Source: Escherichia phage vB_Eco_NicPhage. From it: a DNA stretch of 64,000 nt. The DNA is taken from sequence record OY726582; one strand, written 5' to 3'. Under the pieces are notes generated by a model. That model worked only from the letters and a program-made list of their open reading frames with translations, searched no databases and was not told where the DNA came from. The position numbers were made by a program, and so were the translations under genes. Below are positions 2,639 to 42,123 of the stretch, piece by piece; within the stretch, counting starts at the first letter, position 1; each line of letters opens with the position of its first letter.

Positions 2639-4952
<2,314 letters not shown>

Positions 4953-4982
4953 ATAAAATAAAGCAAATTAAGAGGAATTAAA

Positions 4983-6965
4983 ATGTCACTTCTCTCTCCG
5001 GGCGTTGAGCTCAAAGAAACTACCGTACAGAGTACTGTAGTTAATAACTCCACTGGTACTGCTGCCCTGGCTGGAAAATTCCAATGGGGACCTGCATTCC
5101 AGATTAAACAAATCACTGATGAAGTTGCATTAGTTGATATGTTTGGTACTCCTAATACGGATACAGCAGATTATTTCATGTCTGCTATGAACTTCCTTCA
5201 ATATGGTAATGACCTTCGTGTTGTACGCGCAGTTGACCGTGATACTGCTAAGAACTCATCTCCTGTAGCGGGCAATATTGAATTCACAATCTCTGCTGCT
5301 GGTAGTAACTATGCAGTTGGTGATAAAATTATCGTTAAGTATTTGACCGAAACTGTTGAAGCAGATGGTTATGTCACTTCAGTTGATGTCGATGGTAAAA
5401 TTCTTAACATTTATATCCCAACCGGTAAAATTATTGCTCGTGCAAAAGAAATTAATGAATATCCGGCATTGGGTTCTAACTGGACCGCCGAAGTTGCCAG
5501 TTCTTCTTCTGGACTCTCTGGCGTTATTACAATTGGTTCTATCGTAACCGATTCGGGTATTCTGTTAACTGAAGTTGAAACTTCTGAAGAAGCTATTACT
5601 TCTCTAACTTTCCAAGAATCTATTAAAAAATATGGTGTCCCAGGCGTAGTTGCTCTTTATCCTGGTGAACTTGGCGACCAGCTCGAAATTGAAATCGTAT
5701 CTAAAGCAGACTACGACAAAGGTGCTTCAGCCCAGTTAAAAATTTATCCTGATGGTGGTACTCGTGCATCTACTGCTAAAGCAATCTTTGGGTATGGCCC
5801 ACAAACTGATGACCAATATGCAATTATCGTTCGTCGTAACGATGCTGTAGTTCAGAGCGTAGTTCTTTCTACTAAACGTGGTGAACGCGATATTTATGGT
5901 AGTAATATCTTTATTGATGATTTCTTTGCTAAAGGCGCAAGCAATTATATTTTCGCTACTGCACAAGGTTGGCCAAAAGGTTTCTCTGGCGTAATCAAAC
6001 TGGGCGGTGGTTTATCATCTAATGAAACGGTTGACGCTGGTGATTTAATGGAAGCTTGGGATTTGTTTGCTGACCGCGAATCTGTTAATGCGCAGTTGTT
6101 TATTGCCGGTTCTTGTGCAGGTGAATCTTTAGAAGTTGCTTCTACAGTTCAGAAACATGTTGTAGCAATTGGTGATTCTCGCCAAGATTGCTTGGTTCTT
6201 TGCTCACCGCCACGTGCAACTATAGTCGGTATTCCTGTTAATCGTGCAGTTGATAATCTGGTTGATTGGCGTACTGCATCAGGATCTTACACTGATAATA
6301 ACTTTAATGTAAGTTCTACTTATGCTGCTATTGACGGTAACTATAAATATCAATACGACAAATATAACGATGTGAATCGTTGGGTTCCGTTAGCTGCTGA
6401 TATTGCCGGTCTTTGTGCTCGCACAGACAATATTTCTCAGCCTTGGATGTCTCCGGCCGGTTATAACCGTGGACAAATTCTTAACGTTATTAAGCTTGCA
6501 ATTGAAACTCGTCAACCACAACGTGATCGTTTGTATCAGGAAGCTATTAACCCTGTTACTGGTACCGGTGGTGATGGATATGTTCTGTATGGTGATAAAA
6601 CTGCCACTTCCGTTCCTTCACCATTTGACCGTATTAACGTTCGTCGTTTGTTCAATATGGTTAAAACGAACATTGGTTCAGCATCTAAATATCGCCTGTT
6701 TGAATTGAACAACGCATTTACCCGTTCTTCTTTCCGTACAGAGACTTCTCAATATCTACAGGGTATTAAAGCTCTCGGTGGTGTATATAACTTTAAAGTT
6801 GTTTGTGATACTACCAATAACACCCCAGCAGTTATCGACCGTAATGAATTTGTAGCTACTTTCTACTTACAACCTGCCCGCTCGATAAATTATATTACGT
6901 TGAACTTTGTAGCAACAGCAACTGGTGCCGATTTCGACGAACTAATTGGTGCTGTAGGTGGCTAA
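4983..6965 (+). CDS. 18: tail sheath protein gp18
   Basis: 660-aa ORF, T4 gp18 length and synteny. Confidence 0.95.
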   Translation: MSLLSPGVELKETTVQSTVVNNSTGTAALAGKFQWGPAFQIKQITDEVALVDMFGTPNTDTADYFMSAMNFLQYGNDLRVVRAVDRDTAKNSSPVAGNIEFTISAAGSNYAVGDKIIVKYLTETVEADGYVTSVDVDGKILNIYIPTGKIIARAKEINEYPALGSNWTAEVASSSSGLSGVITIGSIVTDSGILLTEVETSEEAITSLTFQESIKKYGVPGVVALYPGELGDQLEIEIVSKADYDKGASAQLKIYPDGGTRASTAKAIFGYGPQTDDQYAIIVRRNDAVVQSVVLSTKRGERDIYGSNIFIDDFFAKGASNYIFATAQGWPKGFSGVIKLGGGLSSNETVDAGDLMEAWDLFADRESVNAQLFIAGSCAGESLEVASTVQKHVVAIGDSRQDCLVLCSPPRATIVGIPVNRAVDNLVDWRTASGSYTDNNFNVSSTYAAIDGNYKYQYDKYNDVNRWVPLAADIAGLCARTDNISQPWMSPAGYNRGQILNVIKLAIETRQPQRDRLYQEAINPVTGTGGDGYVLYGDKTATSVPSPFDRINVRRLFNMVKTNIGSASKYRLFELNNAFTRSSFRTETSQYLQGIKALGGVYNFKVVCDTTNNTPAVIDRNEFVATFYLQPARSINYITLNFVATATGADFDELIGAVGG

Positions 6966-37304: not shown

Positions 37305-37553
37305 TTATTTAAGGGTAATAACAAAATGACGTACTGCTTTACGAGCTGCAGAAGCCAAAGGCTTAGCATATTTCAGTTCATCTTTTGCTTCCAGTTCAGA
37401 GGCCAAAGCTGCCTGTACCGGGTTCAGATGTTTGAAATAATGCAGGATTTCCAGTGCTTCGGCTTCAACATCAATCGACGCGCCGTAGTTTTCGTGACCG
37501 TTATTCCATGCGTTTCGTTGCAGTTCAAGAGCGTGTTGTAATTGTTTAATCAT
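37305..37553 (-). CDS. rIII: rIII lysis inhibition accessory protein
   Basis: 82-aa ORF (T4 rIII is 82 aa) immediately downstream of gene 31 as in T4. Confidence 0.7.
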   Translation of the reverse strand: MIKQLQHALELQRNAWNNGHENYGASIDVEAEALEILHYFKHLNPVQAALASELEAKDELKYAKPLASAARKAVRHFVITLK

Positions 37554-37677: not shown

Positions 37678-38010
37678 TCACTTATAAAGACACGGAATAG
37701 CTTTATAGTGGCATGTTACGAATTTCTGTTTAATTTCTTTAGGTTGTTTAAGTCCCAAAGCCACAAATGGATGTGGAACATTTCGAATTTGTCCAACTGG
37801 TAGTGGAGTCAAATCACCGACTTCAACAAAACCTTCAGGAACATCAGGACCTACAGAATGAACTACACATAGTTCAGGAACTTCACCTTGAACACGTTTA
37901 CCAATCACAAGTCCTGATTCGGTAACTTCTTCATCACCTGCTTGAGCGGGTTCAGAAACCAGAATGACATATTCACCAACAGCACGAATTGGGAGTTGTA
38001 CTTCAGACAT
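37678..38010 (-). CDS. 31: co-chaperonin gp31 (GroES-like, capsid folding)
   Basis: 110-aa ORF (T4 gp31 is 111 aa), Gly/Val-rich GroES-like composition, synteny with rIII and cd. Confidence 0.85.
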
Positions 38011-38067
38011 CTTATTTCCTTGTTGTTTGACGATAGATTAATAATACCATACTATTCGTAAAGCATA

Positions 38068-38376
38068 TTACATAAGAAGCAAACGTTCTACCGGAGTACC
38101 ATCAACCGAAATTACTTTATCAAGGCGGAAAGAACGCCACTGACCTAACTTGGTATCGAATGCTCGAACTGATTCACGAGGTTCAGAACGAACTTCTGAT
38201 GCCGGATTGTTATTTTCATATTTGACTTCAAGTTCATCGCGAGAAGCAAACATAGTGCGTACCTCACCGTTAGCCTTTTCAAATACAACACAATGAACGC
38301 CTACAGACAGAATAGTTTTAATACGTTCACGAAGAACCATAGTTTCTTGTTCAGTTAAAATCATATTATTCACCAC
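38068..38376 (-). CDS. hypothetical protein (31.1-like position)
   Basis: 102-aa ORF between cd and gene 31. Confidence 0.5.
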   Translation of the reverse strand: MVNNMILTEQETMVLRERIKTILSVGVHCVVFEKANGEVRTMFASRDELEVKYENNNPASEVRSEPRESVRAFDTKLGQWRSFRLDKVISVDGTPVERLLLM

Positions 38377-38947
38377 AAAAGTTTCGGATTTGTTCCCAAT
38401 TCAGAGAACGAAGATTATTACGAGAGTACTGAATTACTTCAATACCGGCTTGTTTTAGAATGTCTGCCCAATTTTCAGGAGATCGGTCGTATAATTCTGC
38501 ATATACAACCTTTTTAATACCTGACTGTGTAATAGCTTTAGTGCAATCAGGACACGGAGAAAGCGTCGTATATAACGTAGCACCTTCAATAGAATTACCT
38601 TTACGAGCTGCAAATAAAATTGCATTCAGTTCAGCATGGATTTCATTATTAGCAGACCATGCACTATGAGCGGCCCGATGTTCTTTAGCCAAAACAAAAT
38701 TATCCACCCGTCCAAATGCTGTAGTGCCTTCTTTATGCCCAGCAACGATGACCGGGCTTGGTTTATTCTTCAACCAACCGTTTTCGGATGCATGTTCGCA
38801 ACAGTTTGTACCACCTGAAGGAGAGCCATTATAACCTGTAGAAATAATGCGTCCATCTTTTTCAATGACGGCACCAACTTTCCATGAACAACATTTTGAT
38901 TCTTGAGAAATCAAATAAGCAATTTGAAGATATGTGCTAGCTTTCAT
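38366..38947 (-). CDS. cd: dCMP deaminase
   Basis: 193-aa ORF (T4 Cd is 193 aa) with zinc-binding deaminase motifs (HAE, PCxxC). Confidence 0.9.
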   Translation of the reverse strand: MKASTYLQIAYLISQESKCCSWKVGAVIEKDGRIISTGYNGSPSGGTNCCEHASENGWLKNKPSPVIVAGHKEGTTAFGRVDNFVLAKEHRAAHSAWSANNEIHAELNAILFAARKGNSIEGATLYTTLSPCPDCTKAITQSGIKKVVYAELYDRSPENWADILKQAGIEVIQYSRNNLRSLNWEQIRNFCGE

Positions 38948-39939
38948 TATTGAACCTTATTAATATAAGTTAACAGCTCTTTAGTTTGTTCCCAACTGAT
39001 GCACGCATCGGTAACGGAAACGCCATAGGACATATTATCAGAAATTTTTTGATTTCCTTCATGTAGGAATGATTCTATCATAATTCCTTTGACCAAATCA
39101 TTAGCTGCTAAATTTTTACCAATACCAATTTGATTGCTATAATGCCCAGCAGCGTTTGCATGGCTACAGTCAACCATTACATAATGATTCAGACCTACTG
39201 CACTTGCTTTGTTAGAAGCTTCTTGAATATCAGAAGAATGATAGTTCGGGCCGTTGGTCCCGCCACGCAATACGATATGCGTATTCTGATTACCTTCAGC
39301 TTCAACAATGCCTACAGTACCATCGACGTCCATACCCATATACCGATGAGGCCTGGCGGCACTATACATCGCGTCTGTAGCTACTTTAATAGAACCATTG
39401 GTTGCGTTCTTGAAGCCTACGCACATCGGTAGACCTGAAGCAATTTCACGATGTGTCTGACTTTCAGTCGTACGGGCGCCAATAGCAACCCATGAGAAAA
39501 TACCAGAAAGATACTTAATCGTGAATGGGTCTAATACTTCAGTTGCTAATGGAAGTCCCATACGTAGAAGTTTACGACACAATGTTCGTGCAACTATAAG
39601 ACCGTGGTTCATATCAAAACTTCCGTCAAGATATGGATCATTTACAAGACCTTTCCAACCTACGGTAGTTCGAGGCTTTTCAAAATAAACGCGCATCACT
39701 AACAGAACATTAGGAAGACGAGTTTGAAGTTCAGCTAGACGTTTGCCGTATTCAACAGCAGCAATAGGGTCATGAATTGAACAAGGACCTACAACAATAA
39801 GTTTGCGTGGGTCTTCACCGTTCATAATCGAATTAACTTGTTCGCGATGAGAAGCCACTTGTGATGCGTAAGCTTCCGACAAAGGAATAATCTCAGCCAG
39901 TTCTTTTGGAGAAATAAGTTTTCTGACGACAGGTAACAT
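38947..39939 (-). CDS. 3-deoxy-D-arabino-heptulosonate-7-phosphate (DAHP) synthase, class I-alpha (AroG/AroF/AroH-like)
   Basis: 330-aa ORF aligning along its length with remembered E. coli AroG (VVGPCSIHDP, MRVYFEKPRTTVGWKGL, AIGARTTESQ.HRE.ASGL, GFKN.T.G.IKVA, RGG..PNY, ESHL.EGNQ); stop overlaps the cd ATG (TAATG). Confidence 0.9.
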   Translation of the reverse strand: MLPVVRKLISPKELAEIIPLSEAYASQVASHREQVNSIMNGEDPRKLIVVGPCSIHDPIAAVEYGKRLAELQTRLPNVLLVMRVYFEKPRTTVGWKGLVNDPYLDGSFDMNHGLIVARTLCRKLLRMGLPLATEVLDPFTIKYLSGIFSWVAIGARTTESQTHREIASGLPMCVGFKNATNGSIKVATDAMYSAARPHRYMGMDVDGTVGIVEAEGNQNTHIVLRGGTNGPNYHSSDIQEASNKASAVGLNHYVMVDCSHANAAGHYSNQIGIGKNLAANDLVKGIMIESFLHEGNQKISDNMSYGVSVTDACISWEQTKELLTYINKVQ

Positions 39940-39947
39940 AACAATCC

Positions 39948-40073
39948 TTAGGAGATATAAACAGATTCTGATTCAACAATACCTTTAACCGGATTAGACA
40001 GGCTAAGTTGGTAGTGCTCAGATTTATGACCATTCTCGATAGTAATGAGATAGCTCTCATTATAGTGTTCCAT
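39948..40073 (-). CDS. hypothetical 41-aa peptide
   Basis: Own translation MEHYNESYLITIENGHKSEHYQLSLSNPVKGIVESESVYIS; ATG overlaps the 3' end of the upstream ORF; weak support. Confidence 0.3.
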   Translation of the reverse strand: MEHYNESYLITIENGHKSEHYQLSLSNPVKGIVESESVYIS

Positions 40074-40296
40074 ATACTCGAGTTGCTTCAACAAGACCAT
40101 CACTGCCTAATTTAAGATTAGTAATTTGGTCACCATCTTTAGGATTAACGATTATGAGAAAAGAACGTGGAGATTCTTGAATAACTCGTAATGTTGCATC
40201 TTGGAAACGTTCAGACACTTTATTGATGAGTGCTTGAGCAAATTCTTTTACTTTAATCTGAAATTCGTGTACTGTAATTGGGTTTTCACTTAGCAT
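40060..40296 (-). CDS. hypothetical protein
   Basis: 78-aa ORF with GAGGA ribosome-binding site and early promoter upstream. Confidence 0.45.
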   Translation of the reverse strand: MLSENPITVHEFQIKVKEFAQALINKVSERFQDATLRVIQESPRSFLIIVNPKDGDQITNLKLGSDGLVEATRVYGTL

Positions 40297-40334
40297 TTCT
40301 ATTTCCTCATTTGTTGGTAGAGTTATAGTATCAC

Positions 40335-40364
40335 AACTCCACCACGTTGTAAACCATTAAATTG
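40335..40364 (-). promoter_or_regulatory. early sigma70-like promoter (-35 GTTTAC, 18 nt, -10 TACTAT)
   Basis: Minus-strand GTTTACaacgtggtggagttgtgaTACTATaactc upstream of the 40296 ATG. Confidence 0.55.
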
Positions 40365-40632
40365 CTTTGCATTCAATTTTTTGTGTACCGAAATTGATAT
40401 CACATTGGATAACTAAATCGCCGTCAAGATCAAATACCACGATGACGTGTGCAGACCCAGGGAGAAGAGTAATAGCAATAGAATCTACTTGGTCTGGGAG
40501 CAAAGCATTGAGTACATGAGTTACTTGAGCATGAACTCTGAGTTCGGCTGCATTATCAAGCACTTCAAACATATTATTAGCAATAATCTGACTGAAGACT
40601 ACCTTTACAATTTCAGAATAAGTTGGGAACAT
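40357..40632 (-). CDS. hypothetical protein
   Basis: 91-aa ORF in the co-directional early gene array. Confidence 0.45.
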   Translation of the reverse strand: MFPTYSEIVKVVFSQIIANNMFEVLDNAAELRVHAQVTHVLNALLPDQVDSIAITLLPGSAHVIVVFDLDGDLVIQCDINFGTQKIECKAI

Positions 40633-40639
40633 AATTACC

Positions 40640-40864
40640 TCAGTGCACAGTATTTACTTTAACTCGAACAACAAATCGCTCGGTTGGATCACCTACAGGA
40701 ACAAACTCTACATGATATTCACCTTTGTAACGAGTATTCAGATCATTACGAATTCCTGCGAGTTTGTTGATTAATGTAGGACTCATATTAAGTCCCACTA
40801 GTTTACGAAGCATTTTGTATGCTTCATCTTCGATTTCATGATGTTTATCGTACATAGTTTTCAT
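40640..40864 (-). CDS. hypothetical protein
   Basis: 74-aa ORF in the co-directional early gene array. Confidence 0.45.
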   Translation of the reverse strand: MKTMYDKHHEIEDEAYKMLRKLVGLNMSPTLINKLAGIRNDLNTRYKGEYHVEFVPVGDPTERFVVRVKVNTVH

Positions 40865-41036
40865 TTAACCATTCAATTGCCTGGTCGACGTTATCAAATA
40901 TCCCGCCGTCCAAACGTTCTTCATGCTCATAGTCCAGCACATCAATACCGAACTGTCCATTTACTAAAGGCCAGGCAACAAACAAATATTCTTTATGCTG
41001 TTCGATGGCCTCAATCACTTCATATAATCGTTTCAT
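40845..41036 (-). CDS. hypothetical protein
   Basis: 63-aa acidic ORF. Confidence 0.4.
   Translation of the reverse strand: MKRLYEVIEAIEQHKEYLFVAWPLVNGQFGIDVLDYEHEERLDGGIFDNVDQAIEWLNENYVR

Positions 41037-42123
<1,087 letters not shown>

Follow-up and report, generated by a model that had tools for sequence, protein, structure and literature searches.

A DAHP synthase with a remodelled aromatic feedback site encoded beside cd in the T4-like Escherichia phage vB_Eco_NicPhage

Introduction

Phages can carry a single host-like metabolic gene that acts at a flux-controlling step, and the transaldolase gene talC of cyanophages is such a single-gene auxiliary metabolic gene (AMG). Here, we analysed a stretch of 64,000 nucleotides of the Escherichia phage vB_Eco_NicPhage (sequence record OY726582; hereafter called the window), which codes for a DAHP (3-deoxy-D-arabinoheptulosonate 7-phosphate) synthase of type I-alpha, and found that the site at which aromatic amino acids inhibit the host isoenzymes is remodelled in this protein and throughout its phage clade. 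Like the cyanophage enzyme, the phage DAHP synthase is one host-like protein at a metabolic control point, presumably expressed during infection and dispensable in the laboratory. It differs in the pathway concerned and in its putative advantage, which would be the removal of allosteric feedback and not a kinetic improvement.

The solved structure that best matches the phage protein is that of the Tyr-sensitive DAHP synthase AroF of Escherichia coli (6agm, E-value 5e-105; see also 6agl), which ranks above the Neisseria meningitidis enzyme and AroG. AroF and the phage enzyme share 51% identity over their full length, the type I-alpha TIM-barrel, identical residues for the binding of the metal, phosphoenolpyruvate (PEP) and erythrose-4-phosphate (E4P), as well as Pro147 (AroF type) and Gly211 (Tyr type) in AroG numbering. 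The phage enzyme differs from AroF in the absence of the first approximately nine residues, in short deletions in two C-terminal loops and in the exchange of Gln152 for Lys, Ser181 for Pro, Pro151 for Ile, Asp156 for Gly and Phe210 for Tyr, and the GC content at third codon positions (GC3) is 50% for aroF versus 29% for the phage gene. With identities of 47% to AroG and 44% to AroH of E. coli K-12 (NC_000913, also used for AroF), the phage protein is closer to AroF than to AroG; a preliminary description made from the DNA letters alone had introduced the gene as aroG-like.

Ten positions of E. coli AroG give or affect feedback resistance, and P150L, S180F, L175D and F209A/S are among the resistant variants (PMC9529685). 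Bound Phe or Tyr is contacted through its main chain by Gln151/152 and Ser180/181, and the salt bridge of Asp155 has been targeted to destabilise the AroG inhibitor site (PMC9529685). For AroF, the replacement of Gln152 or the deletion of Ile11 leads to a Tyr-insensitive enzyme (PMC5791370). The phage protein carries changes at the positions that match these engineered alleles, namely P150I, S180P, L/M175I, F209Y and Q151K together with an N-terminal truncation. The engineered alleles are single laboratory mutations, whereas the natural counterparts use other residues, are combined and fixed clade-wide, and have a predicted effect on inhibition.

That the gene exists and what it encodes is already known, as it is an annotated phage AMG. 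Three papers touch on it as an AMG, without experiments: one is bioRxiv 10.1101/2020.01.19.911818, the genome paper of phage phiC120 points out a DAHP synthase domain (PMC8022965), and a Klebsiella phage study from 2025 hypothesised that the Kanagawavirus synthase contributes to aromatic amino acid supply (PMC11845039). The gene of the window is a typical member of the synthases in PHROG 5045, with which it shares the family and the position between the small open reading frames (ORFs) on the pseT side and cd, and nothing material sets it apart from them. Our additions are twofold: the feedback site is remodelled throughout the clade in a statistically focused manner, and the gene is present or absent as a repeat-flanked cassette.

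Results

Sequence, active site and fold place the encoded protein in the type I-alpha DAHP synthase family. The preliminary description had assigned the ORF to this class over its full length and had located it correctly:

38947..39939, minus strand: DAHP synthase coding sequence (330 aa, type I-alpha, AroF-like, ATG start), from the ORF call and family profiles

The protein matches the Pfam family PF00793 (DAHP_synth_1) with 253.5 bits (cutoff 25.5, E-value 2e-75), the NCBIfam aroFGH equivalog TIGR00034 with 428.8 bits (cutoff 173.2), PRK12755 with 457.1 bits (cutoff 343) and PHROG 5045 with an E-value of 3e-181. The metal ligands C53, H260, E289 and D311 (AroG Cys61, His268, Glu302 and Asp326), the PEP ligands R83, K88, R156, K177 and R225 (AroG Arg92, Lys97, Arg165, Lys186 and Arg234) and the Lys-Pro-Arg-Thr motif for the E4P phosphate (K88-P89-R90-T91) are all present, so that none of the metal- and PEP-binding residues whose loss would have refuted the preliminary assignment is missing. 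Eleven catalytic positions, of which four bind the metal, five bind PEP and two are the Arg and Thr of KPRT, were compared in an alignment of 127 sequences (29 phage-type and 98 non-phage). They are identical in 124 sequences, including all 29 of the phage type, and the remaining three differ only by a Thr-to-Ser exchange at AroG T100. An AlphaFold2 model, built from a 57-sequence alignment with a mean predicted local distance difference test score (pLDDT) of 93.8 and a predicted template modelling score (pTM) of 0.92, superimposes on the solved type I-alpha enzymes of N. meningitidis and E. coli with a template modelling (TM) score of 0.96 and a root-mean-square deviation of 1.3 A. The model is a (beta/alpha)8 barrel with the beta6a/6b regulatory hairpin (strands 198-203 and 209-214) and an N-terminal extension that is about nine residues shorter and of which residues 1-10 are predicted as coil. 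Based on these features, the encoded enzyme is very likely to be catalytically competent and metal-dependent.

At the regulatory site and elsewhere, a position was called clade-diagnostic when a phage consensus of at least 90% differs from a bacterial consensus of at least 80%. Only nine such positions were found in the whole protein, corresponding to AroG 73, 150, 151, 155, 156, 175, 180, 209 and 223. Five of the nine (150, 151, 175, 180 and 209) are among the ten positions linked to feedback resistance (PMC9529685), with a hypergeometric P of ~1e-6, and a sixth is the position of Asp155, the residue of the targeted salt bridge mentioned above. Compared with AroG, the window protein has Ile141 for Pro150, Lys142 for Gln151, Gly146 for Asp155, Ile166 for Leu/Met175, Pro171 for Ser180, Tyr200 for Phe209 and Ala214 for Thr223, and the rebuilt site comprises:

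I141, K142, G146, I147, I166, P171, Y200, A214 (window protein numbering): remodelled regulatory-site residues

At the columns of AroG P150, Q151 and S180, 27 of the 29 phage-type sequences read I-K-P and the remaining two I-R-P and P-K-P, whereas 86 of the 98 non-phage sequences read P-Q-S. Gln151 and Ser180 are kept in 97-98% of the bacterial homologues, but both are replaced in every phage-type sequence. I141, K142, G146, I166, P171, Y200 and A214 show 97-100% conservation among phage genera with only 56-60% overall identity. The N-terminus is also affected: 2-6 residues precede the column of AroG I13 in all phage-type sequences and 10-47 in the bacterial ones, with one exception that has 5. 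With this short N-terminus, the phage enzymes therefore do not have the segment that bears Asp6 and Asp7 in AroG, nor the residues ahead of Ile11 in AroF; Asp6 and Asp7 reportedly reach the Phe site of the partner subunit, as described by Shumilin et al. in 2002. The canonical inhibitor pocket, made up of Gln151, Ser180, Pro150, Leu/Met175, Phe209 and N-terminal residues contributed by the partner subunit, is absent from the window protein. Because the inhibitor-site residues are rebuilt and the N-terminus is shortened, the phage enzyme is probably free of aromatic feedback or strongly weakened in it. For the same reason, namely that the canonical pocket and the N-terminal segment are replaced or missing, the label 'Tyr-sensitive' in GenBank entries is unsupported. 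The alignment of feedback residues with AroG, AroF and AroH that the preliminary description had proposed thus shows a site that is remodelled at the sequence level.

The canonical P-Q-D-(L/M)-S-F-T is retained at this site by around 65 DAHP synthases encoded on contigs of giant-virus metagenome-assembled genomes (GVMAGs) and on further IMG/VR contigs. Approximately 50 of the IMG/VR GVMAG contigs (L032-L094) code for type I-alpha synthases with the canonical site and 40-48% identity to the window protein, and these contigs may be viral or may represent cellular contamination. An exception is the pair L029/L030, a second viral lineage whose pocket is altered in a partly similar way; it reads P-N-H-L-P-Y-S (Q151N, D155H, S180P and F209Y) and has a full-length N-terminus; the L029 synthase is encoded at 3971..5020 on IMGVR_UViG_3300028829_003504 (262 kb), adjoining genes for a dTMP kinase and a Nudix hydrolase. 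Two bacterial sequences, P0109 and P0110, are also altered at the regulatory site, and P0110 is encoded in an ordinary chromosomal context and not in a biosynthetic cluster.

A tblastn search found homologues with an intact ORF and a query coverage of 80% or more in 212 phage records, of which 139 are at least 95% identical, 47 are 60-80% identical and 26 fall below 60%. The homologue survey suggested in the preliminary description therefore finds the gene widely annotated, with phrog_5045 filed under 'moron, auxiliary metabolic gene and host takeover'. Genera with an annotated synthase are Mosigvirus, Kanagawavirus, Marfavirus, Bragavirus and Gualtarvirus. The 7 kb around the gene are 98-99% identical to complete Mosigvirus genomes (Straboviridae, Tevenvirinae) such as those of vB_EcoM_G53, JK45 and APCEc01, and phage vB_EcoM_G2285 encodes a protein that matches the window protein with 100% identity. 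The labels used in GenBank vary and include phospho-2-dehydro-3-deoxyheptonate aldolase, DAHP synthetase, AroG, 'aroF, Tyr-sensitive', 'putative aldolase', 'phosphate synthase I alpha' and hypothetical protein. KP869104.1, MG589383.1 and other records misannotate the locus, for example by naming the dCMP deaminase 'ribD riboflavin biosynthesis protein'.

The synthase gene has a GC content of 41.1%, and its GC3 lies within the range of the neighbouring phage genes (15-34%) and below that of E. coli aroF, aroG and aroH (50-57%), in agreement with the AT-rich, phage-like composition noted in the preliminary description. A search of 5.8 billion proteins returned phage-type sequences from 99% down to ~56% identity and then only bacterial ones at 50-55%, and the nearest bacterial relatives are scattered among Planctomycetota, Pontiella, gammaproteobacteria and enterobacterial AroF. 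In each of 50 neighbour-joining bootstraps, a single bipartition unites the 29 phage-type sequences, and the two deepest members, P0020 and P0022, are likewise located on T4-like contigs. A sister position of the L029-type lineage to the T4-like clade was recovered in 30 of 40 neighbour-joining bootstraps. Monophyly, deep members on T4-like contigs, phage-like composition and distant bacterial relatives point to a single old acquisition rather than a recent capture from a host. We also considered a recent host donor and rejected it, as bacterial homologues reach ~55% identity at most and the closest of them belong to scattered taxa. The synthase is under purifying selection; 111 of the 330 positions are invariant among phage sequences down to 56% identity, and the ratio of non-synonymous to synonymous divergence (dN/dS) is 0-0.37 among the four Mosigvirus genomes that were compared.

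Even within Mosigvirus, the gene is an accessory one. Three records, moha, vB_Eco_mar005P1 and ECO111 5-P, have the flanking sequences and are without ~1.1 kb, so that gene presence varies even inside the species Mosigvirus mar005p1. In moha, the cd.2 stop codon directly overlaps the ATG of cd. The missing segment is bounded in the window by two copies of an imperfect direct repeat:

40049..40063, minus strand: left copy of the 15-nt direct repeat (ATAATGAGAGCTATC), at the cd.2 stop codon, upstream cassette boundary

38936..38950, minus strand: right repeat copy (ATAATGAAAGCTAGC), where the synthase gene stops and cd starts

39940-40059: spacer between cd.2 and the synthase gene, 120 nt

39948..40073, minus strand: 41-aa ORF (MEHYNESYLITIENGHKSEHYQLSLSNPVKGIVESESVYIS), candidate coding, which fills the spacer between cd.2 and the synthase gene and is a component of the cassette

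The repeat copies are identical at 13 of 15 positions and bound a 1113-nt segment that consists of the spacer and the synthase gene. Recombination between them gives exactly the cd.2-cd junction of moha. The 41-aa ORF ends 8 nt ahead of the synthase ATG, is annotated as hypothetical protein in the phages ChristianSchoenbein (bas46_0049) and LF82-3, and is absent as such from the Kanagawavirus and Marfavirus loci. As natural isolates without the gene exist, the synthase is dispensable for plaque formation on laboratory E. coli. The gene thus resides in a genuine virus genome, has viral composition and can be absent while the core lytic cycle proceeds, as is expected of an AMG.

Within the four Mosigvirus genomes, the number of differing sites per 100 nt is 0-2 in the block 38950-40300, which holds the synthase gene, the spacer and cd.2, compared with 4-8 in cd and up to 35 in cd.3. 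Synonymous divergence (dS) is 0.009-0.03 for the synthase gene versus 0.10-0.36 for cd. This suggests that the block was recently shared by recombination, which four genomes can offer as a lead only. The cd.3 allele of the window stands apart from those of the three other genomes, with 31-37 differing sites per 100 nt, whereas hardly any differences are seen in the neighbouring block of cd.2 and the synthase gene, and a sharp boundary of the recombination mosaic is located near 40300.

The following further features surround the synthase gene:

39945..39950, minus strand: Shine-Dalgarno-like TAAGGA (TTATATCTCCTAAGGATTGTTATG), 5 nt upstream of the synthase ATG

38945..38949, minus strand: TAATG, overlap of the synthase stop codon and the cd start codon, with one common base

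38366..38947, minus strand: cd, dCMP deaminase, 193 aa, 71.5% identical to T4 Cd

38955..38959, minus strand: TAAGG, Shine-Dalgarno sequence of cd, 7 nt ahead of its ATG and within the synthase gene at the 3' end

40060..40296, minus strand: cd.2 homologue, 78 aa, DUF7320, phrog_1504, 70.5% identical to T4 cd.2

40357..40632, minus strand: cd.3 homologue, 91 aa, phrog_1695, 80% identical to T4 cd.3

40640..40864, minus strand: 74-aa ORF between the cd.4-like ORF and cd.3, with no T4 counterpart

40845..41036, minus strand: cd.4-like ORF, 63 aa, 52% identical to T4 cd.4

41037..41936, minus strand: pseT, polynucleotide kinase/phosphatase, 74% identical to T4, which anchors the conserved synteny from pseT to synthase and cd on the upstream side

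38068..38376, minus strand: 31.1 homologue, WYL_2 domain, directly downstream of cd

37678-38010: gene 31

37305-37553: rIII

The corresponding gene order in T4 is pseT, cd.5, cd.4, cd.3, cd.2, cd.1, cd, 31.2, 31.1, 31, rIII, and a tblastn search of the window returned no homologues of T4 cd.1, cd.5 and 31.2. The preliminary description had the synthase gene occupy the place of T4 cd.1 to cd.5; since homologues of cd.2, cd.3 and cd.4 persist upstream, it fills the cd.1 slot only. The TAATG overlap with the dCMP deaminase gene that had been described is present at 38949..38945, with the synthase TAA at 38949..38947 and the cd ATG at 38947..38945. T4 cd.1 and cd likewise overlap, and the arrangement is therefore generic T4-style packing and a weak pointer to a functional tie with nucleotide metabolism. 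We searched the region from cd.2 to cd for sigma-70-like promoters, MotA boxes and terminator-like sites and found none, which makes read-through transcription from upstream the simplest model. A dedicated synthase promoter was rejected, as the search of the 120-nt upstream spacer for sigma-70-like and MotA-box motifs came up empty. The proposed coupling to cd consequently stands as far as tight packing without an intervening promoter- or terminator-like site is concerned, but the overlap says little on a link with nucleotide metabolism.

The order pseT, small ORFs, synthase and cd is common to Kanagawavirus CIP9, Marfavirus PhiKpNIH-6 and a deep-branching metagenomic T4-like contig. In Bragavirus, a different ORF follows the synthase gene and separates it from cd, and in Gualtarvirus a homing endonuclease gene lies between the two. 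As the adjacency of synthase and cd is kept in several contexts and broken in these two genera, it is ancestral and not obligatory.

Further observations concern the rest of the region. The WYL_2 domain of the 31.1 homologue is an Sm-like SH3 beta-barrel, and many GenBank phage records call such proteins 'tail fiber protein', a label that has apparently spread from record to record by mistake. A MotA-box-like middle-promoter motif (TGCTTTAC...TATTAT) is located at 38041..38065 on the minus strand, just upstream of gene 31. The pattern TGCTT-N13-16-TANNNT occurs 28 times in the window versus 17 expected, mainly on the minus strand, an excess that is consistent with T4-type middle promoters. An ARAGORN scan of the window found no tRNA genes.

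Discussion

We propose that the phage gene would be transcribed together with the early/middle string of genes from pseT to cd from upstream promoters, that the synthase would be translated from its own Shine-Dalgarno sequence, and that cd translation would begin at the synthase stop codon. Early in infection, the enzyme would condense PEP and E4P to DAHP. The T4-like phage lineage appears to have rebuilt the site through which Phe, Tyr or Trp switch off the host isoenzymes, with replacement of the polar residues that hold the inhibitor backbone (Gln by Lys142 and Ser by Pro171), and the enzyme would thereby be insensitive to aromatic amino acid feedback in the infected cell. DAHP synthase controls flux at the entry to the shikimate pathway, and the later enzymes of the pathway are host proteins that would outlast shut-off, in which case one deregulated enzyme could be enough to hold or raise the flux to chorismate, which would then feed Phe, Tyr and Trp and possibly p-aminobenzoate (pABA)/folate and quinones. 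On balance, we lean towards this reading of a deregulated phage DAHP synthase that sustains chorismate-pathway flux after host shut-off, a view that is built on sequence comparison.

Several observations weigh against this proposal. Five or more genera share the new pocket residues almost without variation, whereas a site that is only disabled would be expected to drift, and the site may therefore serve structure or another ligand. AroH has a Gly at the P150 position and stays Trp-sensitive, so that a change at P150 alone proves nothing. The gene is absent from T4 and most T4-like phages and has been lost from some Mosigviruses, and any benefit must therefore be conditional. The literature searched holds no enzymology, genetics, metabolomics or infection work on phage DAHP synthases. 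Lastly, the phage enzyme retains D146, the AroF-type P147, L179, the Tyr-type Gly at AroG 211 and the beta6a/6b hairpin, and residual Tyr binding is conceivable.

These retained features, together with AroF being the closest relative, are also what would be expected of an ordinary Tyr-sensitive AroF-type enzyme, which could add regulated capacity or replace a decaying host enzyme during infection. However, such an enzyme would have to bind its inhibitor with the Gln151 and Ser180 anchors replaced in every phage-type sequence and the N-terminal segment missing, and five of the nine clade-diagnostic changes fall on known feedback-resistance positions. We therefore regard a regulated enzyme as unlikely.

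The selected product could also be folate, made from chorismate via pABA for thymidylate synthase, dCMP hydroxymethylase and baseplate folate. T4-type phages depend on folate, the gene lies beside cd in a string of nucleotide-precursor genes, and the string of the L011 locus holds genes for dihydrofolate reductase and thymidylate synthase a few kilobases upstream. However, no pab or fol biosynthesis gene is among the companions of the synthase, folate needs are catalytic and small compared with the demand for amino acids, T4 itself does without the gene, and in Bragavirus and Gualtarvirus the synthase gene and cd are no longer neighbours. Folate as the selected product is thus quite improbable in our view.

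The near-invariance of the new residues among genera of only 56-60% identity would fit a site that has been re-specified for another effector, such as a nucleotide, a folate-related metabolite or a phage protein, by which chorismate supply would be tied to phage metabolism. The Lys brought into the pocket, the location of the gene within the early nucleotide-metabolism string and the dTMP kinase gene adjoining the distant sister L029 would agree with this. However, the ligand candidates are purely hypothetical, the conservation equally fits packing at the dimer interface, and the position of a gene in a hyperplastic region is weak evidence, and we consider a new effector still less probable than folate as the product.

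An unregulated DAHP synthase would use up PEP and E4P, and phages rewire the pentose-phosphate pathway, so one might speculate that the enzyme acts as a substrate drain that redirects central carbon or disables PEP-dependent host functions; this idea is speculative and very improbable, as E4P removal lowers rather than raises the non-oxidative output of ribose-5-phosphate and no supporting gene context was found. An E4P sink that raises pentose-phosphate output was ruled out on stoichiometry. The weakest idea, for which there is next to no room, is that of a host-derived gene in decay, or else of a generic aldolase or 3-deoxy-D-manno-octulosonate 8-phosphate (KDO8P) synthase-like enzyme with another substrate, as the entries named 'hypothetical protein' or 'putative aldolase' and the isolates without the gene might suggest, but the aroFGH equivalog cutoff is exceeded by 250 bits, the metal-binding Cys and the KPRT motif are kept, and purifying selection, clade-wide conservation, phage-like codon composition and an intact ORF in 212 records all speak against it. 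A tie to the arabinosylation of hydroxymethylcytosine in Mosigvirus was likewise ruled out by the full E4P/PEP site and the occurrence of the gene in Kanagawavirus, Marfavirus, Bragavirus and Gualtarvirus.

Going beyond the proposed loss of feedback, we speculate that the pocket was rebuilt and then frozen as I-K-G-I-P-Y-A in at least five genera, leaving an enzyme that is either locked on or answers to a new phage-relevant effector, and that would serve as a phage-private entry to the chorismate pathway carried on a repeat-flanked cassette that travels within Mosigvirus. Taken as a whole, this extended picture is doubtful.

Taken together, the gene illustrates how a lytic phage may capture a host biosynthetic pathway with one enzyme that is immune to end-product feedback. 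If this is true, the phage protein would be a natural, evolution-tested feedback-resistant DAHP synthase, which is possibly useful for the bioproduction of aromatic compounds. Since Mosigvirus isolates with and without the gene exist, it would also be a condition-dependent fitness factor when phages of this genus are picked for therapy. For phage biology, it would provide a concrete example of an auxiliary gene that acts by deregulation rather than by added capacity.

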